Of a DNA stretch of 64,000 nucleotides, positions 24,283 through 59,099 are shown piece after piece; the first letter of the stretch is position 1, and each line of letters starts with the position of its first letter. The DNA is from Takakia lepidozioides (taxonomy: Eukaryota; Plantae; Bryophyta), in assembly GCA_030704615.1 (NCBI GenBank), contig CM060734.1, forward strand, positions 16,802,001 through 16,866,000, given 5' to 3'. Both the position numbers and the translations under genes were made by a program. Under the pieces are notes generated by a model that was given only the letters and a program-made list of their open reading frames with translations, was not told the DNA's origin and did not search any database.

Positions 24283-24337
24283 GATGAGGCCAATCCCAAG
24301 GACGATCGCGTACTAAACTCTAAGCTCTGATACCAAG

Positions 24338-28792: not shown

Positions 28793-28826
28793 GATGAGCG
28801 GAGCTGGTGGGATAGGGGGCAGACAG

Positions 28827-28920
28827 GGACTCAAACCCTAGAATTGGGGCATGAAGATGTGGTGCACAATGTGGCCATCGACTACTATGGAAAGTGGCTG
28901 GCCACCTTCACGATGGACAA
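28827..28920 (+). pseudogene. SEC13: SEC13 N-terminal WD40 fragment
   Basis: TQTLELGHEDVVHNVAIDYYGKWLAT matches the Sec13 N-terminus (GHxDxxHDxxxDYYGKRLAT). Confidence 0.75.
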
Positions 28921-31570: not shown

Positions 31571-32417
31571 TTACTCCTCATCAGAAAAAAATCACCTTCA
31601 TACTACTTGGGTACATCAAAGAGTACCATAACCACTCATGCTAGTGTCATTCTGCACTGGCATCAGAGTGACTATAAATGGTTGAGGTATCAGGTACTGA
31701 TGCCCCTGTTGTTCATATAGTCAATTTCAAACCAGCCCCTGGCATACTTTACCAGCATTGAAAAACCCATACAGGGGTCTTGGTTATGCAAATATATCCA
31801 GGTGGTTTGGCATCAAAATCTGCATTAGATGCTAAGCCATGAAAGGGGATTTAAAAAAAAAAACAATGGTACCCAAAGAGCTGCAGCACAAATACTTATG
31901 CAGCACTGATATGAATCATATCAGTATTGACATGTATTATACCAGTATCATATCAGTATATGGTATCATATGTAAACCTGGGGGCAGAACACACAAAGGT
32001 GTGGACACTGATGTGTGTGTCCCACACACAGTATAACCTTAATTGTCAAAGCAAAACTTTGGTCTTAAGCATTCCCTGTTTTGGCAGTGATTAACTAAGT
32101 CGTAAGGCCCTATATTGTTCACAAAAGTAGAGAAATCCAGAAGAGAATTGGAAAAACCCTTAGAGTAGGTGGTTTTCCACAGTCATTGATGAAACCACAG
32201 TCGGCTGATAAATTCATTCCCTTGAAAGCTTCATGGTATCCTGCAAAACTTGGAAGTCATCATGCAAAGTGGCTGCCCTCACCTGCGCCCGTCCCAAAAA
32301 CCACCACAAAAAAAGTTGCCGTTAAGGCACTCACATAGGCACTTTTCCGCTTGCAAACTCGACAGCCCGGTTGTAGGGTTATTGATTTTAATTTTATAGC
32401 TCTAGAGAGAGAGAGAG

Positions 32418-34600
32418 TGTACTCATAAGACGTTGTTTGCCGTAGCCTTGTGGCCATTGACCCTGCGCCCAGTTTGAGCGGAAACCAAAGGGACAGAACC
32501 CACCTCCGTCAGGGGCTGACATTGGTAGTAAGACTTACCTTTATAAATAGAATTAATTCGGGTTTTCCAGATATCCTCTAGAAATCCCTTCACACAAGCA
32601 TCAATCTGCTGTGTGTGATTTGCCCAAAAACTAGGCCTCAGAAGAGCCTGGGCTTTTGGCTCAGCCTCGAGACTTTCAAAGTTGGTAAACAGAGGTACAG
32701 GCACAATTCTCTTGATAGATAGGAAGAGAGCTTCTCTCTGGTGAGAGTACCCCGGACAGTGAATCAGTAAATGAATATTGTCTTCGGGTTGCCCACACAA
32801 CGGGCAATTGCACTCTCCCTTTCCTCTCTGCTTCTGTTTACTGTTCAAAGGTAGGATTCCTGCCCTAAGTTTAAATTTCAGTCTGGTGCCGAGAGTGGGT
32901 AGACCCTTGGTCATCCATGATATCCTCCCCCATGTCACAGACTGGAAACAGGTTCAGGGAAGTTTTCTGCCTAACTTCATTTGCATCAGACAATTTGCTG
33001 GTAACAGACATGGCTTTGGACACTACAGTCTCTAAGTCAGATTTATCCAGCAAGGTCAAGACTTGCGGGTCCAGATTCAGATCCTTGAGAATCTCTTCTA
33101 CTCTCTTCTGCCGGGACTTAGCCTGTTTGACAGGGCGGTCCTGTTTCCAAGTCGATTAACTTAGGGTATTTGGTGTTGGACATGTGTTGCAACTGACCCC
33201 ACCATCTGACCTTGAATTCATCTCGTCGGGAGCTTAAGGAAGGGATGCCAAACTCACCCCGAACAGCCAGATTGGCTGTTTTGGAGCATGCTGACATGCA
33301 CTCCTTAAGCACCCCCACTTGAATGGATTCTAGAGACTTAGCCTGGTTGGAGTTATCAACCCATTAGCAGATCCGTACTCCAAGGCAGGTCTAATAACGC
33401 GGCAAAATAAGGTTTTCTTGACCTCAGAGTTAATCCCTCTACAGTGAAAAAATTTAGTGAGACTCAACGCTTTGCCCTTGCCAGTTTGAACAACTTTCTG
33501 GATGTGTGCATCCCAGTTTCAGTTGGAGGAAAACTCAATGCCCAGGTGTGTGTAGGAAGGGAGGATTGGGATCTCTTGGCTACCCCACTTGCACTTAAGA
33601 TCACTTCCTCCCTCTCCTCTGTCGTTGAATGCCACCATTGCACATTTACTGACATTAGCCTCTAGCCCCCAAAGATCAAAGTATCTCTTCGCGTAATCAA
33701 TCAATTCCTGGAGGTTGGAAGGAGTCTCCCATATGCCTGCGAAGTCATCCGCAAACATGAGGGCTGGAATGGTGGCATCACCCACCCTTAACCCAAATCC
33801 CTCACGTTCCACATCCTCGAGGAGTTGATTGATGAAAACATTGAAGAGCAGAGGGGAGAGCGTACATCCTTGAGCTACACCTTGGTCTATGTCAAAGAAG
33901 TTAGACTTCTGTCCATTAACAGTGACATAACTTTTGGTGTGGGCATACAAGTTATGGACAACTCTCCACATTTTTCCCTTGATTCCGCAAGACCAGAGGC
34001 AGAGCCATAGACCATCTCTCCACACTGTGTCATAAGCCTTTTTGACATCCAAGAAAAAAACATAAGTGGGTTTCCCTTCTTTTTTCCTTCCCTGGATAAT
34101 CTGGCTTAGAGTGAAGATATGGTCCACACAGCCCCTGTTTTGCCGAAAGCCAGCTTGGCCTTTGTGAAAACAACCTCTAGATTTCAGATCGACCTCGAGA
34201 CGAGTACTTATAACTCTGCAAAATATCTTGCCAACAGCATTGAGGAGCGTGATGCCACGATAGTTCTCCGGGTCTTCTCTGTTGCCCTTCTTATATAGAT
34301 TGACAATGACCCCCTGTCGCCAGCGAAAGGGGATCATTTCAGTCTTCCAGATAAGGTTAAAGAGGAGAACTAGAGCCTCTATCATGGGATCGCCACCGTG
34401 CTTGATAAGCTCGTTGACTATGCCATCAGGACCACCTGCTTTATATCCATTTAGATGTTCAATTGCTTCCACAGTCTCAGAAGAACTAATGGGAACATTG
34501 TAGGCTTTTGAAATATATAGTTCATCATGGTTGTTTTGAATCATAGAACAATTTTACCAACTGTGTCCTTCCATTCATCAGAGGACCCCTCACTGTTAGA
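32418..34600 (-). mobile_element. 5'-truncated LINE (RTE/RTEX-like): RT plus C-terminal CCHC finger
   Basis: YKKG..NYRGITLL, QAGFR, FLDVKKAYDTV, QGCTLSPLLF, MFADD; CPLC..H..C; flanked on both sides by CTAGAGAGAGAGAGAG (32402-32417, 34602-34617). Confidence 0.9.
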
Positions 34601-35514: not shown

Positions 35515-35790
35515 CCATGTGCCATCCTCAAAGCTGAAATTGTATTAGTTGTCATTCTGAACACTGCCCTGGTGGACATGTATGCCAAATGTGGGTGCAG
35601 CAAGCCTGATGCGAAGGGAGAGTTCGACAACATGCCTAATTGAGATGTGGTGTTGTGGAGTGCCATGATTGCAGGGTATGTGCAGCATGGGTGTGGGATT
35701 AAGGCTTTGGAAACCTAAGAGCAAATGATGTGGGAAAGGATGAAGCCAGACCAGGTCATGTTCATTTGTGTTTGTAATATGCATATGCGA
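35515..35790 (+). pseudogene. PPR motif fragment
   Basis: VILNTALVDMYAKCGCS..DVVLWSAMIAGYVQHG..MKPDQVMF with stops. Confidence 0.85.
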
Positions 35791-35882
35791 GCCTAGAACT
35801 TGCATGGAGGTGGAACCATCCAAGGCCGGTTACTAGACGCCGTCGACGAGGAGCGGGCCGCCGGAATGTTCCTTCACAAGAT

Positions 35883-36752
35883 TTGCCCATGGAATTGCAG
35901 CCTCTAAGTTCATTCCAACAGTGGCTCAAGACTTTAGTTTATGACGTTGTTTCTCAAGGTGAGGTGGTTTCAGATATGGTGCAAGACCTTGCAAGGGGCC
36001 CCTCTCAATTCGCGACCTCATACATGGCGGTTTGGGATCACGGTCGTCATTTCCGCATTCGTATTCTTGACATGAAGTGCAAAACAACGTTTGATTCTGG
36101 CTTGTGTGCCACATATTGGCAAGACTCCGTGTGGGGCAAGGGAGATACACAACCTGCTGTGAGCAAACTTGAGTACATTGGAGAGCTTGAGAGCATATTC
36201 CAACTTCAGTATACAAGGTACCGGCCTGTTCTCTTCAAGGGAAGGTGGTTCCAACCACATCTTGTGGGGCCCTCCGCAACACTAGTGCGAGATGATTGTG
36301 GTTTCATGCGCGTCAATGCATATAGGCTCAACCCTACTCATCGTCCCTCCGATGAGCCTTTTGCATTTACTTCAGACATGGAGCAAGTTTTCTTCTCCGA
36401 TGACAAAACAAGAGGGGGAAATTGGAAGGTGGTTGTGCATGCTCAGCCAAGAGGAAGACGTATCTATCATGGTCTCAAATCTCTACGGGGTGAGGCAATT
36501 ACGGTGGAGGGACGGACTGGTCATAATGATGTTGATGATGGAGGTTGGGTAGAGGGGGTAGAAGATGATGATGACGCCCCGGAGAATGCATCCCGGACCC
36601 TATATGATGAAGCTCCAGAAGATACGGATGTTGGACAAGGAGATGAAGACATGGCCATTGACAACGAGGTGGAGGATGAGTCGGAGGTGCCTTTTGAGGG
36701 CCGGGCCATTTATGACGATGACTCCAATGACCAAGAAGACTTTGTAGAATAA
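35883..36752 (+). pseudogene. CACTA transposase C-terminal fragment (DUF4216-like) with acidic tail
   Basis: YIGELESIFQLQY..VLFKGRWF..DEPFAF..EQVFFSDD..WKVVV. Confidence 0.85.
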
Positions 36753-37205
36753 AACTATAATCAACCCTAAAGAAAATGATCAATCAGTCTAGAATTCGTT
36801 CGCTGGGGAAAGCACTATACGACTGTAACATAATGATGCCCTGCTACTCTATTTCTCTTCATTCTTCCCACTTAGGACGTTCTACCATTACTTATCTCAA
36901 TCTATAGCAACTAAGACGCTACCAGTTTCAATGATATTTCCTCCATTCTCTATCAATTCTATCCCATTGTATGAGATCAAATACCATTGCTCATCTACTA
37001 CCCTTCTCCAGTAATCTATTTGATACAAGGTCAATAACTCTCGATACCATCCTTTATTCAACAACCATAAATTGATTATCTCTCTGTCACTACATTGCAG
37101 TCTTTTAAAAATATCTAACGACAGACTATTAGGCAGTCCAGTAATTAACTCTACAGGACACGCTATCCATTCTCCTTCACGCATTACTATCAATCACTCT
37201 TTATT

Positions 37206-37727
37206 ACCAATCCTGTTTCCTCAGTTGCTTTGGGGATTTTTCCCTCAACGTTGTTATCTACCATGCAAATGATTTTCACTTCGCTGTTATGCATCTTCCA
37301 TTAATCCAATTGAAGACTCTCTCTATCTTCATTTCCTTAATCTGCTCCCTCATGAACTCTGGGTATCCATCTATCGATATTTCTCTTGGTAGACCAGGAA
37401 CCAATTCTCACACCGAATTCTTATCTTCTCCATTTGTGCACATTTTCACTATCTCACATAATTATCACCAATCCTGTTTCCTCAGTTGCTTTGGGGATTT
37501 TCCCCTCAACGTTGTTCTCTGCCATGCAAATGATTTTCACTTCGCTGTTATGCATCTTCCATTAATCCAATTGAAGACTCTCTCTATCTTCATTTCCTTA
37601 ATCTGCTCCCTCATGAACTCTGGATATCCATCTTTTGATGTTTCTCTTGGTAGACCAGGAACCAATTCTCACACCGAATTCTTATCTTCTCCATTTGTGC
37701 ACATTTTCACTATCTCACATAATTATG
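37206..37727. repeat. Near-perfect 261-bp tandem duplication
   Basis: ACCAATCCTGTTTCCTCAGTTGC starts at 37206 and 37467; ORF 37289-37747 repeats the same peptide. Confidence 0.9.
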
Positions 37728-38078
37728 GTTCTATGGAAAGGTACTAAAAAGTTCTTAAAGTTGTCACTGAGTCAGAAATTCCTATTATTCTACAGACTTG
37801 TAGCTTGATGAGGATGAAGAAGCTCCGGATGATGATGTTCAAGTTTATTAGACACGTAATCAAAGCTACATAATAATTCTCGCACCGAACTGTACCCATC
37901 CCTTCGATTGATTGTACATGTACATGCATATTGTAGCTTATTTCTATGATTTATCAATGGTCTTGCAATCATCTCTCCCTCTCTCTCTAATCCATGGCTT
38001 CAATTGGGTGTCCATGGCATCGAACTCCCGTTAGCTAGACCTTGGATCACTTGTCAACCTCGCCATTGTCATGCCCCA

Positions 38079-41000
38079 CTACCTTTGTCCAAGGCATTGT
38101 GGACACAACCATTCTCCACTAGGAACCTCCTCAAGTGGCGGTGTCAAGCATCCCATATGCCACCCCCTTGAGCATTTGTCACACACCAACATGGTCGCGG
38201 CACCACCAACATGCCCACATAGCATGCAACGCAACCCTGCAGGTACCACTACAAGGTTGGGATCTATCATCCCATCCACATGTGAAAGGTGACATGGCGC
38301 ACAATTGCGCACATGGTCCTTCCATACCATGCCATCTCGACCCTCCAGAATCAACACTCCTGAAGGCAACACCTCCCTGACCCTTAGAATGACACGCCCT
38401 GTTGCACGACATCCAAGGTCATAGGCGCTGTCTGCTACAGATACACATAGTCCCCAAGATGGAAACGCCAAACACCTGGCCGATATCCCCCTCCACGTAT
38501 AGTGGCATATGTGTATCGGTGTTGGGCAATAACAAGGTTCTCAAAAGCCATAGGCATGACTCTCTTGAACAACTCTGCCCATTGGGCACATGCTTGTGTC
38601 CACACATCCGGATCATCAAGGTTGAGGACTACTGTAGTCTCCCTGCAAATAGATGCAGGCAAATCTGGCTCTCGGCCAAAGAGAAGGAAATAAGGCGAGA
38701 ACGAGGCAAGTGATGCTTGCTTGCTAAACCTGTAACCCCTGGCCAACCAAGGTAGCTGAAGGTCCCAATCTCCCAAGTGCCCCTTATGCAAGCCAAACTT
38801 GCGCAAGCCTCGCTTGACTGTTTGCACAACCCTCTCGGCCAAGCCATCAGCCTCGGGATGATCCCGAGAAGTAGTGCGGTGATCTATCAAGGCTTGCTCA
38901 CACAAAGCGTGAAACTCCCCCAAGAACTCTCTCCCCTGGTCCGTGAGTACCTCGGCTGGAGCACCAAATTGGCTAAGCACTCGATCTAAGAATGCATACG
39001 CAGCCCCCTCACTTGCCTTGCCAGGCAATGCCACCAGTTCAATCCATTTGGAGAATTGTTCCACCATCACCAGCACATACTTGTTATGGCGAGTCGTTAG
39101 TGGCAATGGGCCTGCGAAGTCAAGACTCCAACGATAGCCCAAACCCATAATGGGTAAAGGATGCAATTGTGGAGTAGATGCATTGAAAGAAGCCCGCACT
39201 CTATCACACACCATGCACCTTGCCACTAACTGTTGCACATCCGTGTGTGTTCCCCGCCACCAATACTGTCATTGCAACAAACTATGAGTGCGCCGCACCC
39301 CAAAATGTCCCAACTCCTCATGGGCATGGCGTACCAATTGCGCTCGTTGTGTTGGATGAGACACAATCCTCAGTCATCCATCCTCCCATACTCGGAGTAG
39401 GTGAGTCCCCTCCCACTTGAACCTCTTGGCTTGTTGTACGATCCGATCTCTCCCCTTAGCAGTCACACTGGCTGTTGTCTCTCTAGTACGAAGGCAGGCC
39501 AACACTGCTGCATCTTCATGTACATCCTTAGCACCACCAAGCTCCTCACTGATCTCTGGATCGTCATGCACACTATCTCTATGACCAATCGCATGGGATG
39601 GACCAGTTTGAGCTCCCATTGCTAGAATGCATAAAAAGGCAGATGCGTGCCATCCTGGCACCATCTCCTTGTCCGTCTTACCATGCCAACAAGCTCCTGT
39701 ATCATCAAGCTCACTTGTGCATGGATTGCGACTCAATCCATCCGCATCCCGGTTGACTATTCCGGCTCGATGCACCACCTGGAAGTCGTACTCTTGAAGC
39801 ATAAGTGCCCACCGTGCAAGCTTCCCTGTAAGCTTGTCTGACTCCATCAACCACTTCAATGGTTGGTGATGCGTGACAAGGGTGAAGAGATTGCCATAGA
39901 GGTAGCATCTAAAATGTGCCACTGCCCATACTGCAGCTAGACACTCTCCTTCATAGGAACTATACTTCACCTCGGCATCATTGTTTGAGCGGCTAGCATA
40001 TGCCACTACGAACTCTCTTCCCTCATCATCCACCTGTGTGAGCACTGCTCCAATCCCCAGCATACTCCAATCCGTATGTAGCTGAAAAGACCGCCCCCGA
40101 ATAGGCTGCCTCAGAATAGGCGCAGAAGTCAATCGAGCATTGAGTTCCTCAAAGGCTTATTCCTGCTCCTCCTCCCACTGCCACTCTTGACCCACCTTGG
40201 TCAACTTGGTAAGAGCCTTTGCAATGCTGCGAAATCCCTTGACAAACCGTCGATAGTAGTTTGCCAACCTCATGAAAGCACGAACTCTGCTAACATCGAT
40301 GGGGCGTGGAATGCGTGCAATGGCCTCCACCTTCGTCTTTTGAATACCCAATCCTCCAGGGTATATCATGTGGCCTAGATACTCAATCTGGTTGTGGAAG
40401 AACTTGCACTTCCCAGGGTGCAATTTCAACCCATGCGTTCTCAAGCGCTCAAACACCATCTGAAGGTGTCTCTCGTGCTCCTCAATCGTAGCACTAAAGA
40501 TGATGATGTCATCAATGTAGCACCGGACGAAGTCTAGTCCCGCAAGAATCCTATCCATGACCCTCTGAAACTCTGCAGGAGCATTCTTCAACCCAAACGG
40601 TAAGAACCGCCATTGGTACAAGCAATCCTTCCCATGTTGGTCAATCCCCCAGAATGTCGTCTTTTGCTTGTCAGCCTCTTTGATTGACAACTGGTGGTAA
40701 CCGGATCGCAAGTCCAATGTGTTAAACACCTTTGCATGCCCAATGGCATAAAAGATTTCCTCTGGAGTTGGCATGGCATATCTATCGGACTTAGTCTGAC
40801 GGTTCACAGGACGGTAGTCCCCACACATCCTCCTTTCTGTCCAATTGCCATAGATATGCTTCTTAGCTGGCATCACCGTTGCCGAGGCATATTCCCCGCC
40901 TGACAACTCCACCAATCCAGCTTTGAACAACTCCATAGTTCGTGACTGGATCAAAGACCTCTCCATATCACTATACCTGTAGGGCCTTCGAAAAATTGGT

Positions 41001-41090
41001 GTGTCACTTGCCAAATCAATACGAGACTCCTGGCCCTTCAAACTCCCCAAATCCTTCAAACCGAAGGCAAAGCAATTTCTATAAGCCCGG
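38079..41090 (-). pseudogene. pol: Ty3/gypsy pol 3' half: RT, RNase H, integrase and PHD finger
   Basis: [32 protein letters not shown]; LHTDWS..YEGECLA..ADGLSR; WSLDFAGP..TDQG..ADGLAER; CMLC..CDKC..H..C..W.CPQC; purine tract at 37972-37988 (minus) followed by TG. Confidence 0.93.
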
Positions 41091-41436
41091 ATTCCTTGGG
41101 AGCATTATTATAAGTGACAAGCATTGCTCTTACACATTGAGATAATTTGTGTTGATTTGGAGCAATTGTCAAGTGATGAGGAGACAAATGCATGATTGCT
41201 CGGCAATGGAGATATGGTAGTTTGCAATCAAATCCCAAGGACTAGAAGGGGGATTGATCTGGTGGACAATGCCTTGCAAGTTGAGTTGGACCACTCTTGG
41301 TTGCACATTGGGGTGGAAGAGAGCAAGAAGATGCCTCTTATGACCACCTAGAGACCATATTTTTGCTTAAGTAGAAGCATAGAAGTCAAGGACTTGCATT
41401 CTAGCTCTTCATTACAAACCCTAGTAGTGTATGCTC

Positions 41437-41740
41437 AGACTATACCTTTGTTAGTATACCAAACAGGAGCTTGTCCCTTTGACTATACCTCTGTTGAGAT
41501 ATCACCATATGTGAACCCTAATGTGAGACTATACATCTGTTAGTATACCAAACATGAGCTTGTCCATTTTACTATACCTCTGTTGAGATATCACCATATG
41601 TGGACTCTAATCAGCTCAGACTATACCTCTGTTAGTATACCAAACAGAACCCTCATTTTCAGACTATACCTCTGTAAAAGTATCATCAACATAATGGACC
41701 CTAACAACCTCAGACTATACCTATGTTAAGGTATCAACAT
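41437..41740. repeat. Tandem array of roughly 45-bp ACTATACCTCTGTT-type units
   Basis: About 7 units alternating two variants (..AGTATACCAAACA / ..GAGATATCACCATATGTG). Confidence 0.85.
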
Positions 41741-42522
41741 TGAAAGGACTTAGTGAAATTTAAGGGCCTTTGGAGGATTGTTTGGAGGATATTTGAGGGC
41801 AGTGTTTGGAGGATCTTTGGGGTCCTTGGAGGAGTATTGGAGGACCCTTCGAGGAGCTTTGGTGGACAATGTTGAAGAGCTCTTGAAGGATTGATTGAGG
41901 GATATTTGAAGGATACTTACCACGGCCATACAAGCGAGTGGATAGAGACAGGAGGGAGAGTGGCGGGATGAGAGCATTCTGGGGTTAGGAATTGCTTTAG
42001 TTTCTCTTCCCCATAGTCTTTCACAATCTCTGTAGGCCAAAACCTTTCCGTAGGTGGAGGCAAGAGTCAGTCCGGGTTTGGGCTGGGGTGTCATTGCAGG
42101 AGCGACACTGTGGAGTATTTTTGGTGTGGGGGAGTTGCTGTCTTGATTTTCTTGTGTTTGGATCCCCTTCACACCTACATGCTTGACTGTGCGCCATATT
42201 AGCTTTGTGTAGGCGCATGTTTTCATAGGAGGTTGGTCCGGATTTGATCACCGGCCAATCCTAGAGTATGCTGTCGGTGGTGAGGCTGGAGTGATGACCA
42301 GCAAGACCATCAGTGTTTCTTCTATGGTGAGGCTGGGTTGATGACCAGCAGACCATAGGAGTGCTTGCGGTGGATGCAGGTGCAGGTACAGGTTTACGTT
42401 AGAAACCTATTATTCCTGCTTGAACCAGTAGCCGCAACAGGTTCTCTACCCGGTTACCTTGTGGAAAGTGGGGATTAGAGACAGGTTGACAACCGGTTGG
42501 GTTGTGAGTTTTCATCACGGAG

Positions 42523-45028
42523 GTGCCACCAATTGCTGAGGGGAGTGCCGGTATGAGCACCAGCGATACTAGTGGGTACACAAGACGAGGTGTGCGGCTT
42601 AGGCCACCTTCACCTTCAGTGTCTTCTGAGGAAGGTTCAGACTCGGAGTCAGGAGGATTCTCGCCGAGGATGCAAGTCATTTCCGTGCCATTGTTGTGGG
42701 ACACGATGGAGGAGATGTATGGAGCTACCAAGGGGCCACGTAGGTACTCTGGAGCTGTGGGCACCATCGAGCTTGATGACTTCATACAAGAGTTTGACAG
42801 TTGGTGTGATTTGCAGCAAATGCGCAATCCACAACTGTTTACGCCCTTTATGGCGTGGAAGGGGCTATTCCAGCACCTTGAGGAGCCGCCCATGGATGAT
42901 TACCATGTATTTAAGCGGGGACATACGGTGGAGATTGAGAAGTGGCGAGAGTATTGGTCACCTAACTATGTCTCCATCACTAGAGGCACAAGGGCAGCGA
43001 CGACACCAGCAGCTACACAAACATCTCCAACTGCAAGCACTAGTAGTGGGACAAGTGGTACAGGAGCTCGGAAATCCACTCAAGCTCCTGCTGCAGCACC
43101 AGCACCCGTGCCTGCCTTTAACCCAGTTGTGGAGTTCTTTGAGGAGTTGAGGAGAAACTACCAAGGGATAAGGACAGAGAAGTTGCGGAGCTTGCAAGAA
43201 TTCCAACGAAGGTCTACTGAGAGTTTGAGGGAGGCTTACACCCGCATGAGGCGCTTGATAAATGTAACCCAAGGGGTTACAGAAGCTCAGGCAGTCCAGT
43301 TTTGGTATGGGATCCTGGACAAGGAGCTGAGGAGAAGCGTGCGGGATGCAACTCTCCTACAAGTGGACCAACCCACCTTAGCAAATGTTTTTTCTGCTGG
43401 CAGAGATAGAGCTCAATATGGTGGATGAGCAAGTGGTTATGGTGGGGTTTGGCAAGGAGACACAACGAAGTGGGGCTCCTAGCCAACAATAACCACTATC
43501 CCAACGTGTTCAAGGCAACAAGGGGGCTCAGGTGAAGCCGATGGAAGGACAGAGAGGATCTCAAATGCAGAGGTCTCTTCCTTCATTCTCAGGCCAACAA
43601 CAATCGGGTGTGACTTGTTGGGATTGTGGAGGACCCCATGTCAAAAAGGATTGCCCGGAGAGAGACAAAGGGCCGGCACAAGCACAACCTACACAACTAC
43701 AGTGTGGGCATTGTGGAAAGTATGGGCATGAGGAGGCCCATTGTTATGGCTTGCATCCTGAGCTACGGCCAGGCCAATTCGAAGGGAACAATGGTGGCCG
43801 AGGACGAGGCAATGTAGTTCAGAGAGGTAGAGGAGGCAGAGGTCGGGGTGGAGGTCGTAACCAAAACCAAGGAGCACAAGGTCATGACCAAGGCATGGTG
43901 GATAGACTTGCCCAGCTAAAGCAACGTCTTGCTGCCATGGCCACTAGTCATGTTGCGCCAGCTCCAAGGCTTGAGGTTCAAGCCCCACCTGCACAACCTC
44001 CTATGCCTAGGGAAGATCAGATTGGTATGGGCTTCATGTGTGGAGCCGCACTTGCAGGGCCATTGCATGTATTGGACTCTGCTGCTGCTATCACTCGAGC
44101 AGCAACGCGTGCTCCTGAGCCAAGATGAGCGGATGTGGATTTTGATCCACAAAGGGGGGAAACAAGTCGTCAGACAAGGCTTCTACAGTCCTTTACATAG
44201 GCTGAGATAGTGCCACATACGCCATCAATGACACCTGCTCGCCCAAGTGTGTTAGAGGTAGAGCCACGAGTGTCATTGGGGAGAGTTGGTGTGGCTAGGG
44301 AAATGCCAGTGGGTGGTGCTGCAAAGCAAGGTACAGCCAGTACATTGTTGGGGGCGGCTACGGCGGTTTGCCAAGCTCCATTGTTTTCTGCAATGACCAT
44401 TGCAATGCCGGGGATTCGGCCAGCTGCTGTGTTCAGACTAGCAGCTAGATTATGTGAGAGTGGTGATGCATCGACACTATCTGCGGAGATAGCAGATAAG
44501 GTGCAGTCTATGGATGCTTTGGATTCGAGGGTGAAGTCAGCCACAGTTGCGCCATGGCAAGCGGCAGCTGCAAGGTTGCAGGAGTTGCCAACTAGGCCAG
44601 CCATTGAGCGCAGCATGGTGACTCCTAGGGTAGTCCTGGTGGACAATCAGGATGGAGTGTTTCAATTGGGTGGCCCAACCGGGAGGAGGTATAGGCCACT
44701 ACGGGTCTTGTTGGACTCGGGAGCACAACCATTGATGTTGGGGAGAGCAGCAATTGCAGACTTGGGCCTTACAGAGGCGGATTTGGAGCCTTGTCCTTTC
44801 CAAATTCAAACATCTTTGGGTGGTTCAGAGAAGGCGCAAGGGATTACACGCCATGAGCTCTTCATTCGATTGCAGCCAGATCATCCTACGGACGGCTCAG
44901 TCATGAAAGCTAAAGCCATTGTTACGGACGCGATGTCATATGATGTGCTTGTTGGTGGGGCTATGTTGTACCCCATGGGATTTACTTTGGACTTTTGGGA
45001 GGAAACGGCATCCTACAGGCTGGAGTGA
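42523..45028 (+). pseudogene. gag: Gag (two Zn knuckles, RGG tract) and aspartic protease of an LTR retrotransposon
   Basis: FQRRSTESLREAYTRM; CWDCGGPHVKKDC; CGHCGKYGHEEAHC; VLLDSGAQ..YDVLVG; frameshift and stops. Confidence 0.88.
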
Positions 45029-45419
45029 CAGTCAGGAGATGGCCGACGTGCACTGCTCCCAGTGCGGTTTATTGGGAATGTAGCGGTGGATCATAGGAAC
45101 ATGATGCCCACATTGGCTGCATTCTCAGGGGTGGTGGCTTGGGGTGGTGAGCTCTTGGAGGGCAATAGCCATGTAGATGATAGGCCACCATCTGATGAGG
45201 ACAAGCAACTGGTATACAAGGTTGAGTTGCTTCCTCATGTGCCTGTGCATATTCCACTGTGGGGTACGGTTGGGAATTTGCAGCGAGTAGCAGGCGAGAG
45301 TGTGCACCAAGCATGGCAGGAGGCCTATCCATTGGTGAGTGAGGGGAGATCAGTGACATCACCCGGACCTCCTCAGTTAGCTCCTTTGGACACAATGCCC
45401 ATTACCTGGCAACCACCTG

Positions 45420-46345
45420 ACTTAGGGATTTGTTTGCTAGACATGTTTGGAGGCATGAGCACTGGGCTTGCAGGAGTGTTGCAAGTAGGGATTAAAGTAC
45501 GCAAGTACTTGTATATGGAGAAGGATGAAATAGCTCGGCGTATTTCTATGCGCCACATCGCCTTGTTCACACACCGGTATCCTGAGTCGTTGTCTCTCTC
45601 AGCAATTCAAGGGTATCAAAAGGCCTTGCCAGTAGACATTACCTTGCTGGGGGCGGATGATTTGGACCGGCATGGTGCCATTGCCAATGACACTCTCCCG
45701 CAGGTCATGGAAATGGCTTGCATGATGCACGATTGCATTTGTTTTGGGAGATGTTGCGAGTGTTGCATGACTTGCAGACGAGGCAAATGCAACCTCTAGC
45801 CTATATCTTGGAGAATGTTCCTCTTATGGGGGACTCTCGGGCCAGGGTTATGGCCAGTGTGCATCAGGTGTGGTCTTGGATTGGATCGGCGGTGCTATTG
45901 GATGCAGCAGCGGTGGGATCACGAGCGCATCAACCTCGATTGTGGTGGACCAATCTTGCACCACCAGAGCTGCTCAAGAGAGCATACGATTCCATTCAAC
46001 GGCCACCCAATCTCACAGTTGAAGGCATTTTAGACCAAGGGAGGCAACCACAGAGGGTGCAACATGATGACCGTCCACCTCTAGCAGTGGTAAATCGAGT
46101 AGGGCAGCCACGTGCAACCTTGCCTACACTCTTGAGCTTTCCCTCGTCTCATGTTTTTTGAGACAATGGTCCTGGGTTGATTTGGGACAGTGTGCTACAG
46201 CAATTGGTGGAGCCCAATGCAGATGAGCGAGAGCAGGCAATGGGATTTGCCACGGGCACTACAGCTGTGTCAGCTCTGTCAGAGGCATCACGATGCTAGG
46301 TGTTGGGTCAGGCAATGGATCTCAATTGCTTGACATGGGTCATTG
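45420..46345 (+). pseudogene. Retrotransposon-borne C5 cytosine DNA methyltransferase domain (DNMT3-like), decayed
   Basis: Motif I LLDMFGGMSTG, II YMEKD, III DITLL, IV remnant CQ*HS.AG.GNGLHDAR..LF, VI YILENV, VIII RAHQPRLWWTN, IX EREQAMGF, X LGQAMD, all in canonical order directly after the protease. Confidence 0.88.
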
Positions 46346-47211
46346 GCTTGTGCATGGCTGAGCAACAGAGATTGCAAGCATTGGTGGCTACTTCTGCACT
46401 TCCATTGGATATTGCACCATCTCTGCCAACCGGGACGGTGGAGGCAGTGAGTGGAGGCGAGCACAGGATCATGGGGTGCAAACACCCATGGCAGATGTGG
46501 GATGAGATGTGCAAAGAGAGAGTCATTGGTTCTCTCAAGCAGCAGTATAAGAAGTGGGGAGAGCCATACACTGAGTATCAGTTGGAGGCCAAGGTGGCCA
46601 ATGTTTTTGAAGAGGTTGAGAATGTTTCTTCCCCAGAGGATGTTCTCAAGGTGGCTATGGCGGAGCAAGTGGAGGCTATGCCACGGTCAGGGTGGGCGGA
46701 TAAAGCCCAAGAGGTTGTTATTTAGCAACCAAAGGATGCGTCTCCTATTTCCAAGCCTTGGATCCCACTCTCACGCCATATGCCTCATTTGGGATCTTGC
46801 ACCAATCCATTATCCATGTGCTCCCCTTGGTCATTTGAATGCATGTTCCATGACCTCTTGGCCTATGTGTTGCTCTCCTTCATCATAACATGAATCAACA
46901 CCTCTCCACTTCACACACAAATGGATCGCAAGGCCTTCACCTCTTGCTAGTTCAAGAGCTCCCCTTCTCAAACTTGAACTTACAAACTCAAGAGAACATG
47001 CTCCACACATGCACCACTTGCTTGGTCAACTATTGTTAGAGGGCTGTCTGGGACTTAGACAGTGTTATGGGTTCTGTGGGGTACACTTAGATAGTTTTAC
47101 GGGTTCAGGGGGTACCCTTAATTTTTGCGCAGACTTACGGATGTAGACTTAGACCAACAGAGGCCTTAGGGGTGACAGACATAGGTTTTAGGGGTGGTAG
47201 ACAGGCTTACA

Positions 47212-47442
47212 CACTCAGTCACAGTCTTACACAGTCGTACACAGCCTATCATAGTCTATCACAGCCATACACAACCTTACACAGTCTGTCACAGTCAATC
47301 ACAGCCTATCACAGTTAGTCAGAGTCTATCACAGCTCGACACAGCTTCGCACAGTCCGTCACAGCCCGACACAGCTTTATACAGCCAGTTACAGCTCGGC
47401 ACAGTCACAGCCCGACACAGCTTGGCACAGCCCGTCACAGCG
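47212..47442. repeat. 10-bp-period minisatellite (ACAGNNNNNC)n
   Basis: About 23 units with ACAG almost exactly every 10 nt. Confidence 0.9.
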
Positions 47443-48008
47443 TACGTAGGGAACGATTATCATTGGCAGGGAACGACTGTGTGGGAACGACATCTGCAGA
47501 GGGAACATGCTCACTTCTTGAGATGACAGTTAGTTAGTTAGGTGGTTAGAATAGCTTGCGGGTAGATTAGGCAGAGTAGCAACTTCGAGAAGGGACTTAG
47601 GGGGAAGAACGATTGGGAGGACTTCGCGGAGAGCACTTCTGGATCATCAGCGGAGGTGATCAAGGAAAGAACACGGACTGGAGCAAGGATGGAGAGTACA
47701 GTGATGGAGGGGACGCAATCTGCTGATGTTTGATGAATGCAAGCTGTAGAGTTAGACTGTAGAGCAGATTAGGGACACCATGGCTTCGGCCTGATACATG
47801 ACAAATCTTAATCTGACACCTATTCGATACAATCACACGGTGTAGAGAGACTTGAGTGAAGCTGTGGAATGAATGGATGAGTGAATGGAACCTGAAAGAT
47901 TACTGAAGCAATCTGATGCTTAAGTATACACAACAAGGTAATTTGTTAACATGAAATCAAGAAGAAATACAAACAGGAAGCACAACCATGATACACTAGT
48001 TATAGGTC

Positions 48009-48704
48009 ATGACAGATTGTTCTGAGCGGGCTGGGTGCTTAGAGATTTCCAACTCTTCTATCTTGGAGTTCCCACCTCGGATAGCAAAGGGATGGGTGAG
48101 TAAAAGCCGCACGACATTTGGCGACCGTACTGGGAGACTGGGTCAAGAACAACCAGATGTGACAGGCATCTGGTGGGATCATGGTGGTTGGAGAATTAGA
48201 GAATTTGATGTGAATCAAATTCCTTGTGGAACTGAGAAAGAAAGATTGTCCAAGCAATTCTTTCAGAGATTCTTGGAATTGCCAGACGGTTGCAAAGAAA
48301 ACATTATTAAGAGAGTGCATGATGCTGATCCTGAGTGGGGTCTGGAGAAAGGAGTGATAAAGATTTATCAAGTGGCCTGTAGAGGGAGAGCAAGTTGGTT
48401 ACCAACGCTGGTTTATGTGATAGCGTTGCTATCCATCAAACGAGTGGAGTTTGAAGGCTGGGAGGAACGGAAAGTGAATGTTTACACTCATATGCATGAA
48501 GAGTTGGTACTGGTAAAGAATTGGATTCCTAAGGATATCTTGTGGATCAAACTGACACCAAGAACAGCTTTTCAGACGTGCTTGCCATATGGTTATATGG
48601 TAACAGAGACTTCTAGTATAGCCAAGGGTGCATTGAAGCTTGAAAGAAATCTAGGCATATACGAGAGATACTACAGAAGAGAGTTTTGGTTATTGCCTCA
48701 TTGA
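48009..48704 (+). CDS. 231-aa extra ORF upstream of gag in an LTR retrotransposon, unknown function
   Basis: Intact ATG-to-stop ORF; same-length homolog at 60498-61193. Confidence 0.65.
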   Translation: MTDCSERAGCLEISNSSILEFPPRIAKGWVSKSRTTFGDRTGRLGQEQPDVTGIWWDHGGWRIREFDVNQIPCGTEKERLSKQFFQRFLELPDGCKENIIKRVHDADPEWGLEKGVIKIYQVACRGRASWLPTLVYVIALLSIKRVEFEGWEERKVNVYTHMHEELVLVKNWIPKDILWIKLTPRTAFQTCLPYGYMVTETSSIAKGALKLERNLGIYERYYRREFWLLPH

Positions 48705-48950
48705 AGATATGAAAGACATGGGACATGAGTGATGAAAGAGAAGCTAGACTTCACAGATATTTAGCAAAAAGAGAAAGTTATTTGAAAGCTAATTATCCAT
48801 ATCTTTGGGAGAGAGGAATAGACATAGGAGAATCATCTAGACCTCTCACACCATTAAGATCGAAGAGTACATCACCCATACCGGAGGAACCAAAGTTGGA
48901 TGCCACTCCTTCTTATTCTTTACAAGAAAGATTAAGGGATTTGGTACAGG

Positions 48951-51833
48951 GTGAGCCCAAAAGGCATCACCAAAAATTCGTACGAGCCATACCTTGTCCT
49001 GCATGCTGTCTTTTCCTCATCTCCTTCTACTATCCGGATCTGGTGGTAACCCAAGCGTAAATCGATCCGGTTGAAATACTTTGCTCCTGCCAACCGATCG
49101 AAGAGGTCGTCGATCCTTGGCAAAGGGTACCGGGGTTCGATAGTCACCTTATTCAGAACCCTGTATTCGACACACATCCGCAGCGTCCCATCCTTCTTAT
49201 CTGCGAATAGTACCGGGGCTCCGTAAGATGACTTACTCAGCCGGATGTATCCTTTGCCATTAGATGCTTGAGCTGGGCCTTCAGCTCGACCAACTCTCTG
49301 TGGCTCAACCGGTAGGGCGTCTTGGCAGGCGGCTCCAATCTCGGCATCACCTCTATCTTGTGGTAACTCCTCTTCACGGTGGCAAGCCGCTTGATAAATC
49401 CTCCGGCATCACATCCTGGTATTTCTCCAGGATCTCCTTGATCCAATCTGGGCTCAGCTCCCTATCGAATTCTCCTTCCACTTGTCTCACGTAAAGCAAA
49501 AATTGGGGCTCGTGTGGCTCCTCTACGGCCCATTCCTTTGCTGTCAGCAGGTTTATTTGCCCTCCCACTCGGTTGGGTGTTTCCGGCACCCGTAAAACTT
49601 CGCCACCATTCCCACACGGTAGCGTGACTGTTCTCTTGCGGCCATCTATGACCGCTCCGGATTTTCTCAAAAAGGTCATCCCCAAAATGAGATCCACTCC
49701 ATTGATCTCGCAAATGGTGAAGTTCTCACGTCCCTCCCAACTCCCCAGCTGAAGAGGAACATCGAACGTCACCCTTGTCGCCAGTTGCGGTTCTCCTTTG
49801 GCAGAACGCACTTCAATAGAAGCCCCCACATCACTTGTCAGGAGGCCCGGCTTCCGTGCCATTGCCGGTGCCATGAAGGAGTGCAACGTTCCTGTGTCCA
49901 CCAACAACGACACGTTAGTTCCGGAAATTATCCCGCACACGAACATTAGCTGATTTTTTTTCGCAAAGCTCCCGTCTCATGATACGACCCACAAGAGCAG
50001 TTGCCTACCTTGCAAGTCTTGGCGACCACTGCCTCCACCAAGTGGCTGATGTAGTCTTCAAATAGCTCCGTGGTCGCCCGAGTCATGTTCAATTGTCGGG
50101 GTTTCGCGCACTTCTTGGCCATGTGCCCGGGCTCCCCGTAATTAAAGCACACCCCATCAAAGGTCGCTCCGCCATGAGCCGACACACCTGAATTTTTTTT
50201 CGGAGCACCGGGCTCCGTACGGCCCTGTCTTTCGCCCCTAGGGACATCCGAGAAACATTCAACCCTTTCAATTGCCTCGTTCAAAGTCTTTGGTGGCCTC
50301 TCCTCCAACTTCCGTCTGGCCCATGGGGCCAGTCCCGCCACAAAGTTAAAGACCATTTCTGGTTCCGCCATATCCGCGACTTCGAGCAACAACACATTGA
50401 AAGCCTGAACATATCCCCGAATGTCATCCGTTTGCTTCAAGTTCCTCATCTTATCCCGGGCGAGCCAGGACGCGTTGAGGGGCACAAACTATCTTTTCAT
50501 AAGTTCCTTGAACCCACTCCAGCTCAAGGTTTCTGGGTTTGGCCCTTAGTCATGAAGGCGCTTCTGCCACCATTGTTGAGCATAGCCCCTCAAATAGGTG
50601 GGAGCCATTTCCACCCGATCCTCGTCACTCAACTTGGCCGCCCGGAAGTACTGCTCCAGCTCCAAGAGCCAGGTGTTGAGTGCCTTCTGATTTTGGACGC
50701 CCTCGAAGGTGCCGGATTCCTTAGGCTTCACCTTAAATTTCGCCTTAGTGGAAGTGGCATTAGCCGCCCTCATCACATCTTTCAACGTCCCGCCAAACTG
50801 CGCCATCAACCCTTCCCAAATGGCTGCTGGCATAGGAGGTATCTTTGGTCTGGCGGAGCCTCTGGGAAATCCTCGGGCTCCGACTCCCCAAATTTCTCCC
50901 GTTCTTGAGCGGCCTCGCTTTCAGAAGCATAAATCGCCTCTTCCATTTGCTGCTTCGGTGACACGTCGCCCCCACCGGGCTCACCATGATCATCGTCTTT
51001 CGGGCCGTTCCGCTTTCGCTTTGTCTTGCCCAACCCCATGGTGAGGCCGATCTCAAGGACGATCACGTACTGAACTCTAAGCTTTGATACCAAGTGTCGC
51101 GCACCTCACTTTGGTAAGCTCCCCTTCAAGTCATAGTTACTCGCTTTGATGCGCGCGCCTAACTCCCAAACTGGCCGCCGGGCCAACTCGGAGCTTCGGT
51201 GAGCATCACCGGGGCATAACGGTCCCCCTCACACTCCCACTTGACCCTTGACCTGTTGGGCTCAGTGGTAGATGACTCAGTGTTCCCTTTGGTAGATGGC
51301 AGTCCGGAACAGCTCCCCACACCTTGGTCGCTTTCCGGCTTGCACGCTTACTCACTAGTTTTTGGTCACCAACGGGCTTGCACCGTTCTCGGGGTTACTA
51401 CTCCCTATATATACTTCCGTAGGTGTCCGCGGGGGTTCCACAAGTAGCCAAGTCCAAATCTGGTGCACCACCACTTAGACCCTCGATCGTCCATGTGGTG
51501 AGCCGCGGTGAGTCTTGGCCCACCCACCACGGCCCTAATGGACCGTGGTGAGTCCCAAGACTCCCCACGACTCCCACCACAAGGCCTCAGCCTCATGGTG
51601 AGTCCTATGCCATCCTCACTACGACTCCCTATGCTACCACCACCCCTCGTGGAGCCCCCACCACCGCCACCCGGTTTGCGGGGCTCCACCTAGTGAGCAC
51701 CACCGCCTCCTTGAGTGCCTTCGGCACTCAAGGGTGCTTCAGCCCCCTTTCCAATTTGCTGCCGCTGCCCCCACCACAAGGGCAGCCCCTCTTGTGTCCC
51801 GACCCCCCGCCCTCAAGGCAAAGGGCAGCGACA
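48951..51833 (-). mobile_element. Chromovirus family copy 2: 5' LTR, PBS, gag, protease and partial RT; 3'-truncated
   Basis: LTR 51095-51833 (TGTCGCG..GCGACA) homologous to copy 1; PBS TGGTATCAAAGC (51081-51092); RT runs to FLVMPFGLT, then abuts the other element. Confidence 0.92.
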
Positions 51834-53917: not shown

Positions 53918-54015
53918 AGCGGAAAGTTCCTGCCCACGGACTTTCCGCCGTTTGCGGGTATGCCCTCGGGCCCACCCTTAAACGGCGGAAAGTCCTTGGG
54001 CAGGAACTTTCCGCT
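53918..54015. repeat. Nested inverted repeat (36-bp arms, each itself palindromic)
   Basis: Arms 53918-53953 and 53980-54015 are reverse complements with one mismatch; each contains GCGGAAAGT..ACTTTCCGC. Confidence 0.9.
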
Positions 54016-54438
54016 ATACTTAAGGATTAACCTCCCATGCTTGCGCAAAGACACATTATGGCACCTCTAACCATAACCTGGTTACAAGCTGCATGTTACT
54101 AGGAGATAGAGGTGGAGGCAAGGCAAGTGGGGCGTGAGTGGGGTGGTGGTCACACTCAAAGGAAGGGACGAGTCGTTGCAGACGAACATGGGCCATGTGC
54201 TGGATGACATGGCAACGGTAAAGAGCGCCGTTCTTACTAGAGTAAAAAGGTGGGAGGAGAATATAACCACCTTCCTCTTCGGCTTCTTCCACCCACTTCT
54301 CTCTTCTCGTCTCTGTCTCCTTCCCTCTCCTCTGCTTCCACTTTTGACGTTAACGAAGAGGGAATTTGTGTGCGTGGGAGGTCTGTCGTGTGTGTTTGAG
54401 TGCCGGTTAGGTTTCAGGGTTTTGTAACAAGGTAAGAG

Positions 54439-54945
54439 CTGGCGGAAGTGAAGCAGAGTGAAGTAGCGCTGGAGCAGCGGACTAACGAGGGCGTTGTGCT
54501 CGCGCTGTACACAGCACTGGGCGCGGGTGATGCCGCGGGCCTGCAAGCCTTAGTTCGCGAAGATCTCGAGTGGTGGTTCCATGGGCCGCCCTCTGACCAG
54601 CATATGATGCACTTGCTTACTGGTGTTACACCATTTAACACCTTTGCATTCAAGCCAGTCCGTATTTGCGGCATTGGCAGCAAGGTATACGTGGAAGGGA
54701 AGGGTGTGGAAGGGAAGGGGCCCTCCGCTCGCGTCGTCTTCTGGGTGCACATATGGACGGTTAAAGACAAGCGCATTACGCAACTGCGTGAGTACTTCAA
54801 TACAGCGATCCTTGTCACAGATCTGACACTCTCAGAGCCAACACCAGATGTGATTCAGTCTCATCCCTGCGCCACCCTGTGGCAGAGCCAGTTGTGGAAA
54901 TCCAAGGAAGGCCGCTCGATGCCCGGTCTCATCCTGGCTGTGTAA
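54439..54945 (+). CDS. Wound-induced protein WI12/WUN1 family (SnoaL/NTF2-like fold); start codon uncertain
   Basis: NEGVVLALYTAL..DLEWWFHGPP..MMHLLTG..FWVHIWTV..ITQLREYFNT..LWQS..SMPGLILAV; uninterrupted; CT-rich leader and TATA-like AATATAA at about 54260. Confidence 0.9.
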   Translation: MAEVKQSEVALEQRTNEGVVLALYTALGAGDAAGLQALVREDLEWWFHGPPSDQHMMHLLTGVTPFNTFAFKPVRICGIGSKVYVEGKGVEGKGPSARVVFWVHIWTVKDKRITQLREYFNTAILVTDLTLSEPTPDVIQSHPCATLWQSQLWKSKEGRSMPGLILAV

Positions 54946-56548: not shown

Positions 56549-57269
56549 CTTATAACAATGCTTTTGAGAGCCAAAAGCCTAAGAGAAAGTGGAAGATGTT
56601 GAAATGATTTGCACTTCTCCCAAATAATGTTGGCCACAACACATTCATGAGGTCGGTTGTTGCCGCGGGAAGATACTGACCCTCTCCAGGGTCTTGGGGT
56701 TTTAGGGCAACAAGGTGAGACTTGTTGTGCTTGCCCGGACAATGACACCTGGGATGAGAGGACGGAGGGGCGGAGACTTGGCTTCACATCAACTGGCATG
56801 TTGAAAGACCCACACTTGCCCAGAATGGAAGTAAAATTCAATAGCAGCATTATCGCCAAATGGACTTCACTCACTTTGTTGATTCCCACTATCAATGAGA
56901 GTCCCAATTCGCTCCCTACTCAGAGCTTTTGAAATGTTACCTGCCTGATTCAAGTTGAATACTACCACTGCAGAGCCCAAAGTTAGAACTGCACATGGAG
57001 GTCCTGTACTGAGCCACTGCTTCACTAATAGTAATCACCCTGCAGAGAACATGCCTATACTACTTTTTTTCAGATATAAGCTTTCTTTAAGGGAGCTCAA
57101 CATAACTGGAACTACAAGTAAGTCATATGCTCACACTTATGAAAAAGGATCAGGCAACAGAGGTCAATTAACCCACTGCACAGGGGAAAACATGTGTGAT
57201 TGACCACTTGGTTACACGGGATGCCATTCTCTTGGCAAAGGGTGATGGCTGTAATGTCCATGACAGATT

Positions 57270-57893
57270 GTACTCATAAGACGTTGTTTGCCGTAGCCTT
57301 GTGGCCATTGACCCCGCGCCCAGTTTGAGCGGGAACAACAGGGACAGAACCTACCTCTGTCAGGGGCTGACGTTGGTAGTAAGACTTACCTCCATATAAA
57401 GAATTAATCCGGGTTTTCCAGATATCCTCTAGAAATCCCTTCACACAAGCATCAATCTGCTGTGTGTGATTTGCCCAAAAACTAGGCCTCAGGAGGGCCT
57501 GGGCTTTTGACTCAGCCTCGAGACTTTCAAAGTTGGTAAACAGGGGTACAGGCACAATTCCCTTAATAGATTTGAAGAGAGCGTCTCTTTGGTGAGAGAA
57601 CCCCGGACAGTGTATCAGAAAATGAATACTGTCTTCAGATTGCCCACACAATGGGCAATTGCACTCTCCCTTTCCTCTCTGCTTCTGTTTGCTGTTCAAA
57701 GGTAGGCTTCCTGCCCTGAGTTTAAATTTCAGTCTAGTGCCGAGAGTGGGTAGACCCTTGAGGTCATCCAAGATGTCCTCCCCCATGTCACAGACTGGAA
57801 ACAAGTTCAGGGAAGTTTTCTGCCTAACTTCATTTTCATCAGACAATCTCATGGCAACAGACATGGCTGAGGACACTACAGCCTCTAAGTCAG
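57270..57893 (-). mobile_element. 3' fragment of the same RTE/RTEX-like LINE
   Basis: Closely similar to 32420-33040, including the CCHC finger and the GAGTACA end. Confidence 0.9.
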
Positions 57894-58650
<757 letters not shown>

Positions 58651-59082: not shown

Positions 59083-59099
59083 CGGTTACAGCCCTGAAC

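Follow-up and report, generated by a model that had tools for sequence, protein, structure and literature searches.

Why would a moss retrotransposon carry a DNA methyltransferase, and in what amounts, relative to its own polymerase, would it make one? The question is raised by a locus in Takakia lepidozioides, lying in a window of 64,000 nucleotides (GenBank assembly GCA_030704615.1, contig CM060734.1, forward-strand positions 16,802,001 to 16,866,000; coordinates below count from the first nucleotide of this window), in which a degraded Ty3/Gypsy-type element encodes a DNMT3-like C5-cytosine methyltransferase (DNMT) behind Gag and protease. Elements of this kind have already been published: retrotransposon DNMT3s were reported from dinoflagellates and one charophyte, the latter described as an independent acquisition in the Klebsormidium lineage (PMC5890265). 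The new point is a conserved stop codon with a readthrough-type context, located between the DNMT and the reverse transcriptase (RT).

The methyltransferase domain and its setting in the window

The DNMT domain (45434..46345, plus strand) carries motifs I-X in canonical, non-permuted order: LLDMFGG at 45434, YMEKD at 45512, ENV at 45811, HQPRLWWTN at 45928, EREQAMGF at 46225 and LGQAMD at 46303; a first-pass annotation, made from the sequence letters, had listed motif positions that six-frame translation and motif mapping reproduced to within a few bases. The intact relative P0233 matches both sides of a 25-nt deletion with frameshift near 45682 (63% identity over 45434-45682 and 61% over 45682-46380; E 1.5e-106) that takes most of motif IV, with eight motif IV residues absent in tblastn and 25 gaps against another copy in host run X5; its second-best match in the window had an E-value of 0.25. 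The broken window piece scored 19.9 bits against PF00145 (E 5.6e-4; cut-off 22), and intact relatives scored 35.6 and 46.1 bits. All 16 phmmer matches of the window domain to PDB sequences were DNMT3A chains (best E 1e-5). A profile built from 57 relatives ranked DNMT3A (7e-28) first, followed by DNMT3B, DRM (4e-14) and HhaI (8e-9); DNMT3A, DNMT3B and DNMT3C were all placed above DRM and the bacterial enzymes, and neither DNMT1 nor CMT appeared among the 56 PDB matches of this profile. The predicted structure of intact P0233 (predicted local distance difference test score 85.3, predicted template modelling score 0.83) matched DNMT3A in Foldseek (E 8.6e-19, template modelling score 0.79 by target), and profile search and Foldseek agreed on a DNMT3 rather than a DNMT2 fold. 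Sequence profile and predicted fold place the domain nearer to DNMT3A/B than to enzymes of the DRM, DNMT1/CMT, DNMT2 or bacterial type, which upholds the resemblance to DNMT3 proposed in the first pass.

Upstream of this domain, the plus strand encodes a Gag capsid region (42508..43392; open frame to a frameshift near 43390; PF03732 22.5 bits, E 1.3e-4, below the Pfam cut-off), with 66% identity between the Gag part and residues 1-227 of Marchantia Mp4g09160; two zinc knuckles read by eye in the translation (43616..43744; CX2CX3HX4C at 43616 and CX2CX4HX4C at 43703), for which Pfam returned no zf-CCHC match; and an aspartic protease (44621..45025; LLDSGA at 44708; PF13650 19.2 bits, E 0.002, below the cut-off) that is collinear with those of relatives. 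Downstream follow the C-terminal tail of the first open reading frame (ORF1; 46346..46722), with an amphipathic stretch, an HPW motif and an acidic end, and an amber stop in the context TAG CAA CCA (46723..46731). The reading path on this strand spans three frames, changing near 43390 and at 45682 and ending at TAG 46723; it is damaged by the frameshift near 43390 and by stops at 43490, 44126, 44198, 45026, 45688, 46159 and 46297. With its motif IV deletion, frameshifts and several stops, the copy is dead, as had been concluded earlier.

No RT-like sequence follows the DNMT on the plus strand of the window, by Pfam scan and translation. The remaining domains are found on the minus strand: RT (40160..41088; YIDD at 40519; PF00078 E 1e-32), RNase H with a linker (39377..40156; TDWS at 40075; PF17917 E 1e-34), integrase (38438..39376; H2C2 finger and the region of D 39121, D 38944 and E 38839; PF00665 E 9e-15, PF17921 E 5e-4; stops at 39376, 39271 and 38437), and the C-terminal region of the integrase, which closes with a PHD finger (38079..38417; CMLC at 38228; PF00628 E 4e-11). 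The RT-RNase H part is 61% identical to Marchantia MARPO_0091s0058, and both halves of the window copy are matched by the same Marchantia and Sphagnum proteins. The slot between protease and RT, to which the first pass had assigned the DNMT, is that of the family as seen in relatives, but not that of the window, where RT, RNase H, integrase and PHD finger lie upstream on the minus strand (41088-38079).

The plus-strand block 41089..46758 is read as flipped relative to RT-integrase because 46755 and 41089-41098 are joined on opposite strands in other copies, namely in an X1 contig and in X5 record 19 of the host runs (joint 41098/46755); in the latter, the upstream non-coding sequence at 46755..47033 (minus strand) continues into 41089. 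Eleven contigs run past 46758 with different letters, and a 2173-nt X8 contig matches RT-RNase H and, about 440 nt upstream, DNMT motif X in family order and orientation, provided that two records of equal length and equal depth represent one contig. These joints make a 5.7-kb internal inversion of the window copy highly probable, and the linker between DNMT and RT would have lost some tens of bases at the right break of the block. It counts against an inversion that, among the contigs listed, none spans the window's own breakpoints and none contains the opposite junction. The region is a nest of repeats, and the two halves might instead come from two distinct truncated copies in head-to-head arrangement, or from an assembly error; this is improbable, since the halves are complementary and positions 41089 and 46755 are joined elsewhere exactly as a single inversion predicts.

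The stop codon between methyltransferase and reverse transcriptase

The RT-linker motif was found in 19 of the 29 related metagenome loci, and in all 19 an in-frame stop precedes it by 15-16 codons (TAG in 15 loci and TAA in four, one of these being TAG-TAA). The next codon is CAA in 18 of the 19, against a background, after any TAG in the same loci, of 2.2% for CAA and 0.47% for CARYYA. Four near-duplicate pairs are among the 19 loci, most of which stem from one Sphagnum-type subfamily, and the fair count is therefore four subfamilies. Three of these four fit UAG-CAR-YYA with the RT ORF downstream in frame: the window subfamily (TAG CAA CCA), L006/L017/L018 (CAA CCA, CAA CTA) and L012 (CAA CCA). 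UAG-CAR-YYA is the tobamovirus type I readthrough consensus, through which polymerase is made at a set low ratio (PMC3542737). The residues flanking the stop differ among subfamilies, and synonymous sites are near-saturated in the three that were compared. Ten database proteins, including Marchantia Mp4g09160 and one from Calypogeia, terminate at the equivalent site, as do the tails of many relatives, 72-143 residues past motif X; L006 is open from Gag into integrase save for the conserved stop and one other. In the host runs, among the sites listed, the base before the 46723 stop is variable and the stop itself is not.

By this comparison, the 46723 stop is no lesion. Where stops had been counted as decay, the reading holds for the one at 46297, which differs in 95% of the depth of other copies, but not for the conserved family stop at 46723. 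Likewise, the placement of the DNMT inside the element's polyprotein is right insofar as the domain shares a frame with RT in relatives, but a conserved stop comes between them, and the continuous gag-protease-DNMT-RT frame envisaged in the first pass is interrupted by a stop in every locus reaching the RT linker. We consider the stop probably leaky by readthrough, the likely main product being a Gag-protease-DNMT protein of about 1,400 residues and the RT-RNase H-integrase-PHD portion a minor extension; because the stop is conserved, in frame and set in a readthrough-type context, Gag-protease-DNMT would be abundant and RT-integrase rare. Readthrough between gag and pol is rare in LTR (long terminal repeat) elements (PMC3441728).

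Two observations weigh against readthrough. The Sphagnum type, with 14 of the 19 loci, reads CAA CCC and thereby misses the final A of CARYYA, and it has an ATG three codons past the stop; furthermore, no stop separates DNMT and RT in P0022, P0055 and P0173, which are deeper-branching proteins with the same domain order. The Sphagnum-type ATG would suit termination followed by reinitiation, and the Marchantia gene models P0005, P0012 and P0014, which are predictions, link DNMT to RT by skipping the stop region, as expected if RT-integrase were translated from a spliced or subgenomic RNA. Either route would leave the enzyme active and the DNMT still at the level of Gag. We regard both as unlikely: neither the window nor L006/L017 has an early ATG past the stop, and neither reinitiation nor splicing would require RT to stay in frame, as it does beyond the stop in divergent subfamilies.

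The family and a possible role of the enzyme

Database searches returned 31 long and 147 short relatives, and those with an organism name (16 of the 31 long ones and 10 of the 120 short ones listed) are all from liverworts or Sphagnum, the hosts being Marchantia polymorpha, M. paleacea, Riccia sorocarpa, Calypogeia fissa and Sphagnum. An exhaustive search yielded 990 clusters at E <= 0.001; in a scan of IMG/VR, none of nine pattern matches was confirmed. RT was reached in 17 of the 29 metagenome loci, always downstream of the DNMT and on the same strand, and L002, L006, L007 and L025 show the order Gag-protease-RT-RNase H-integrase with a DDE integrase. Host run X1 gave 51,024 contigs on 36500-48000 and 3,933 on a 1,241-base DNMT stretch, of which 40 sites (3%) separate the window copy from the majority; summed contig depths, including the lower depth over protease-DNMT than over Gag and RT-integrase, are not equivalent to copy numbers. 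At the motif IV deletion, 19 host contigs go on with letters encoding the absent motif. The intact PC motif that the first pass proposed to test for is kept in other host copies, and also in relatives from Marchantia, Riccia, Calypogeia and Sphagnum; the Marchantia gene models Mp4g09160 and Mp8g17980 have a long ORF1 with the catalytic motif kept. In a quick IQ-TREE tree, the window domain falls into a 20-row set (95% SH-aLRT) with every named bryophyte row.

Non-flowering streptophytes have DNMT3 as a class of host genes (PMC6453930), and an ordinary Gypsy copy could in principle have captured a processed fragment of such a gene once. This explanation was considered and ruled out, with a vanishingly small residual probability: the domain occupies the same slot in liverwort and moss elements, the host contigs are multi-copy, the relatives form 990 clusters, Pfam scans of window pieces and relatives gave no DUF3444 match, and RT and DNMT trees split alike by domain order. 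The host thus harbours a multi-copy retrotransposon family, as the first pass had supposed.

Between subfamilies, the ratio of nonsynonymous to synonymous substitution rates (dN/dS), which had been proposed as a check, was 0.08-0.14 for DNMT pairs involving the window (seven finite values of ten, the other three being saturated), 0.13-0.20 for nine DNMT pairs involving L006, with dS near saturation, and 0.04-0.11 for RT (L001 RT rows excluded for an internal frameshift). These sequence comparisons show the DNMT family to be under purifying selection between subfamilies; ratios of 0.36-1.0 among near-identical Sphagnum-type copies point the other way and are those expected of decaying copies.

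A second architecture occurs among the long relatives that contain both domains: 36 of 41 read RT-RNase H-DNMT-integrase, with or without PHD (for example P0078, P0029, P0030, P0047 and P0062), and five have the DNMT before RT. One of the RT-first proteins is named, from Scenedesmus sp. PABB004; this order was not found in the literature covered. The RT tree (FastTree, no outgroup) and the DNMT tree (the quick IQ-TREE run) both split by architecture, with 99% and 98% support, and neither is rooted; the pattern fits a single old DNMT capture that later moved between slots.

No 3' terminal repeats, LTR pair or other self-repeat of the DNMT element were found within the window, and the ends of the element are known from relatives. 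L025, the sole locus with both ends, measures 9,206 bp, begins and terminates with TGTCATG...CATGACA, and is flanked by a 4-bp target duplication; repeat A (337 bp) lies at its 5' end and B-A-B at its 3' end (B being 115 bp), giving the layout A-coding-B-A-B. B-A-B is also seen in L003, and A at both ends in L002. In the four loci shown, a TGG primer site after the 5' repeat A is absent, and a G-rich tract lies ahead of B. The 3' end (L025:14208-14777; L003:5071-5640) is readable as three TG...CA units, B, A and B, two bases apart, resembling built-in circle junctions without a tRNA primer site. The first-pass label of LTR retrotransposon therefore stands for a retrotransposon-borne domain, but the split direct repeats of the relatives are not ordinary LTRs, and ordinary LTR finders may miss such elements.

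What such an element gains from its enzyme was left as an open question for the published retrotransposon DNMT3s (PMC5890265). We lean slightly towards a joint reading in which the window holds a dead, likely inverted copy of a Ty3/Gypsy-type element organized as Gag-protease-DNMT3-like-[stop]-RT-RNase H-integrase-PHD, whose stop, read through only occasionally, would leave the enzyme at Gag level in the particle for cDNA methylation. Particles would be built from Gag-protease-DNMT plus a minority of full-length product; the protease would release the domains and RT would copy the RNA; the abundant DNMT would then methylate the naked new cDNA inside the particle, and the methylated cDNA would integrate through the PHD-bearing integrase. 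The advantage might lie in passing as host DNA or in governing the chromatin of the new copy, both among the options named by de Mendoza et al. (2018; PMC5890265). Because the conserved stop follows the DNMT, a Gag-like quantity of the enzyme would be required, which suggests that it acts on cDNA within the particle; cDNA is a modestly favoured candidate substrate over host chromatin or RNA.

The best PDB matches of the PHD finger were CHD4, KMT2D, KDM5B/5A, PHF12 and PHF21A, and it also resembles the fingers of AIRE and UHRF1. The fingers of CHD4, KDM5 (PHD1), PHF21A, AIRE and UHRF1 are readers of histone H3 unmethylated at K4, as is the ADD domain of animal DNMT3, and the finger may, quite tentatively, steer integration to chromatin lacking H3K4 methylation. 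The same resemblance could suit an enzyme acting on chromosomal DNA, at the insertion site or on sister copies, and, guided by the PHD finger of the full-length product, limiting family activity or reshaping chromatin; host-benefit and insertion-site roles are among the options in the literature (PMC5890265). Such a target seems rather unlikely, as the stop would leave most DNMT linked to Gag and free of PHD, and the protease would likely part the domains.

The family enzyme is probably catalytically active, judging from conserved residues: xCQ is kept in 53 of the 61 relatives spanning motifs I-VI, and the catalytic Cys, ENV and the S-adenosylmethionine (SAM)-binding motif are retained in liverwort, moss and algal elements. 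Across the relatives, motif IV is written GWPCQ in 92 and GWECQ in 54. In 152 of 212 relatives, Phe or Tyr occupies the position four residues past the recognition loop's conserved Thr, a position that we take to correspond to the CpG-reading Arg of DNMT3A. This substitution, together with the negative yeast result for KnitGypsy-Dnmt3 given below and with Gag-level amounts that would suit a structural part, leaves a small probability that the domain is a nucleic-acid-binding or RNA-methylating particle protein and no DNA methyltransferase; the conserved catalytic Cys, ENV and SAM motif and the DNMT3 rather than DNMT2 fold argue otherwise. Two points nevertheless count against cDNA methylation. 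KnitGypsy-Dnmt3, the closest assayed enzyme, was inactive on DNA in yeast, a result that its authors call inconclusive; the SymbioDIRS retrotransposon DNMT3 methylated CG de novo in the same host (PMC5890265). Moreover, CG depletion is not peculiar to the DNMT element, other repeats being equally depleted. It was tried as a sign of self-methylation and rejected: the element gave CG values of 0.42-0.51 and two chromovirus copies 0.83-0.86, but two further repeats gave 0.12 and 0.39. Ten of the 24 listed transitions distinguishing the window copy are in CG context (background about 10%), as ordinary methylation-driven decay of an inserted copy would produce, whichever enzyme was responsible.

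A wider evolutionary scenario is possible, though we advance it with reserve: an ancient green-lineage Gypsy superfamily may have possessed a single enzyme of DNMT3 type since before land plants arose, with the slot moving (before RT in the streptophyte type, between RNase H and integrase in the chlorophyte type), a leaky amber stop in mosses and liverworts, and particles filled with enzyme that deliver pre-methylated cDNA through the PHD integrase. If true, this would be a retrotransposon that sets its epigenetic state by itself, persists in many copies in land plants and has an apparently intact ORF1 in Marchantia. The presence of the family across liverworts and mosses shifts the question of its role to Marchantia, a tractable plant with methylation mutants, and copies of these elements can inflate the DNMT inventories compiled from bryophyte genomes.

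Neighbouring features and comparison with known systems

The surroundings of the DNMT element are rich in other repeats. A chromodomain Gypsy element (18826-25018, minus strand) has repeats 5,512 bp apart and a partial second copy at 48990-51789, CG being little depleted in both (0.83-0.86); the 5' part of another LTR element is present in two copies that are 89% alike (47450-48950 and 59945-63200), with a 232-residue ORF (48006-48704) that has no Pfam match and lies upstream of gag in the second copy. LINE (long interspersed nuclear element) reverse transcriptase fragments occur in both orientations (32400-34553, 57262-57975 and 59098-59537). A DUF4216 (CACTA-type) ORF lies at 35778-37950, where other copies join 36736 to 37794, indicating that the intervening stretch of about 1.05 kb, which holds a 261-bp tandem duplication, was inserted in the window. 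Arrays of units of about 50 bp, with a short palindrome between A-runs (3362-3543, 5855-6552 and 10178-10388), are probably subterminal repeats of transposons. A 723-residue open frame without a Pfam match (680-2851) looks, by its motifs, like a Mutator-type transposase, and 28670-29215, with no supporting Pfam match, is a short stretch resembling the first WD40 repeat of SEC13. Decayed tandem repeats encoding pentatricopeptide repeats, a land-plant marker, have periods of about 300/390 bp (14500-16260 and 35541-35760); a database look-up with one such piece assigned it no more narrowly than to Streptophyta. An intronless WI12 gene (wound-induced, SnoaL-like) at 54436-54945 looks intact; it shares 67% identity with a Sphagnum cluster, 60% with Physcomitrium, 56% with Marchantia as well as Riccia, and 67-70% with other database proteins, and a 48-bp perfect-spaced inverted repeat (53918-54015) lies upstream of it. 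By sequence comparison alone, these genes mark the host as a land plant and make a bryophyte, perhaps a moss, likely.

Among the Ty3/Gypsy lineages of REXdb (chromovirus Tcn1/Chlamyvir, Phygy and Selgy; PMC6317226), the Gypsy domain order is shared and some clades likewise have no tRNA primer site; in contrast to these lineages, a PHD finger here replaces the chromodomain, and the main text of that paper mentions neither "PHD" nor "methyltransferase". The host DNMT3 proteins of plants (PpDNMT3a/b, MpDNMT3b; PMC6453930, bioRxiv 2021.02.12.428880) have the same non-permuted DNMT3-type catalytic domain; they end, however, in a C-terminal DUF3444 (PMC6453930) that is absent here, whereas the element's domain sits in the protease-RT slot and is multi-copy. 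An in-frame amber stop before the polymerase is shared with tobamovirus type I and gammaretrovirus gag-pol readthrough; the gammaretroviral stop works with a pseudoknot (type III), whereas the stop described here follows Gag-protease-DNMT and is known from sequence (PMC3542737).

In land plants such as tracheophytes, retrotransposons of this type are absent according to a commentary (PMC6338049), and no bryophyte report of a DNMT3 retrotransposon occurs in the literature covered, which lacks subscription papers and bioRxiv supplements. The first-pass suggestion of a charophyte precedent, here KnitGypsy-Dnmt3 (PMC5890265), and of a land-plant host is supported. SymbioDIRS-Dnmt3 of Symbiodinium (PMC5890265) also combines a Dnmt3 domain with split direct repeats in a retrotransposon, and, in the covered part of that paper, it is the sole enzyme of this kind shown to methylate CG de novo; in contrast to its tyrosine recombinase, the elements described here encode a DDE integrase, and L025 shows TG...CA ends flanked by a 4-bp target duplication.

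The closest described system is KnitGypsy-Dnmt3 of Klebsormidium nitens (PMC5890265; the term KnitGypsy occurs only there in the literature covered), whose intronless, non-permuted Dnmt3 domain lies in the coding part of a Gypsy element and evolves under purifying selection (Ka/Ks < 0.2). Several differences stand beside this likeness. The hosts here are land plants, liverworts and mosses. The bryophyte DNMT ends a Gag-protease ORF before the stop, whereas the paper puts it in the Pol ORF; the KnitGypsy-type arrangement, with DNMT and RT in a single frame that no stop interrupts, is found in the deeper relatives P0022, P0055 and P0173. The terminal PHD finger of the bryophyte elements has no counterpart in the covered main text of PMC5890265 (figures aside), where "PHD" does not occur. 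As a caveat, none of the database matches is a named Klebsormidium sequence, and the likeness to KnitGypsy is one of described features and not of a tree. KnitGypsy-Dnmt3 is described as having DIRS-type repeats with Gypsy domains in the layout A-coding-B-A-B (PMC5890265), the layout also seen in L025 and, in part, in L003 and L002, and this unusual split-repeat organization, common to both, is the strongest reason to group the bryophyte elements with the algal family.

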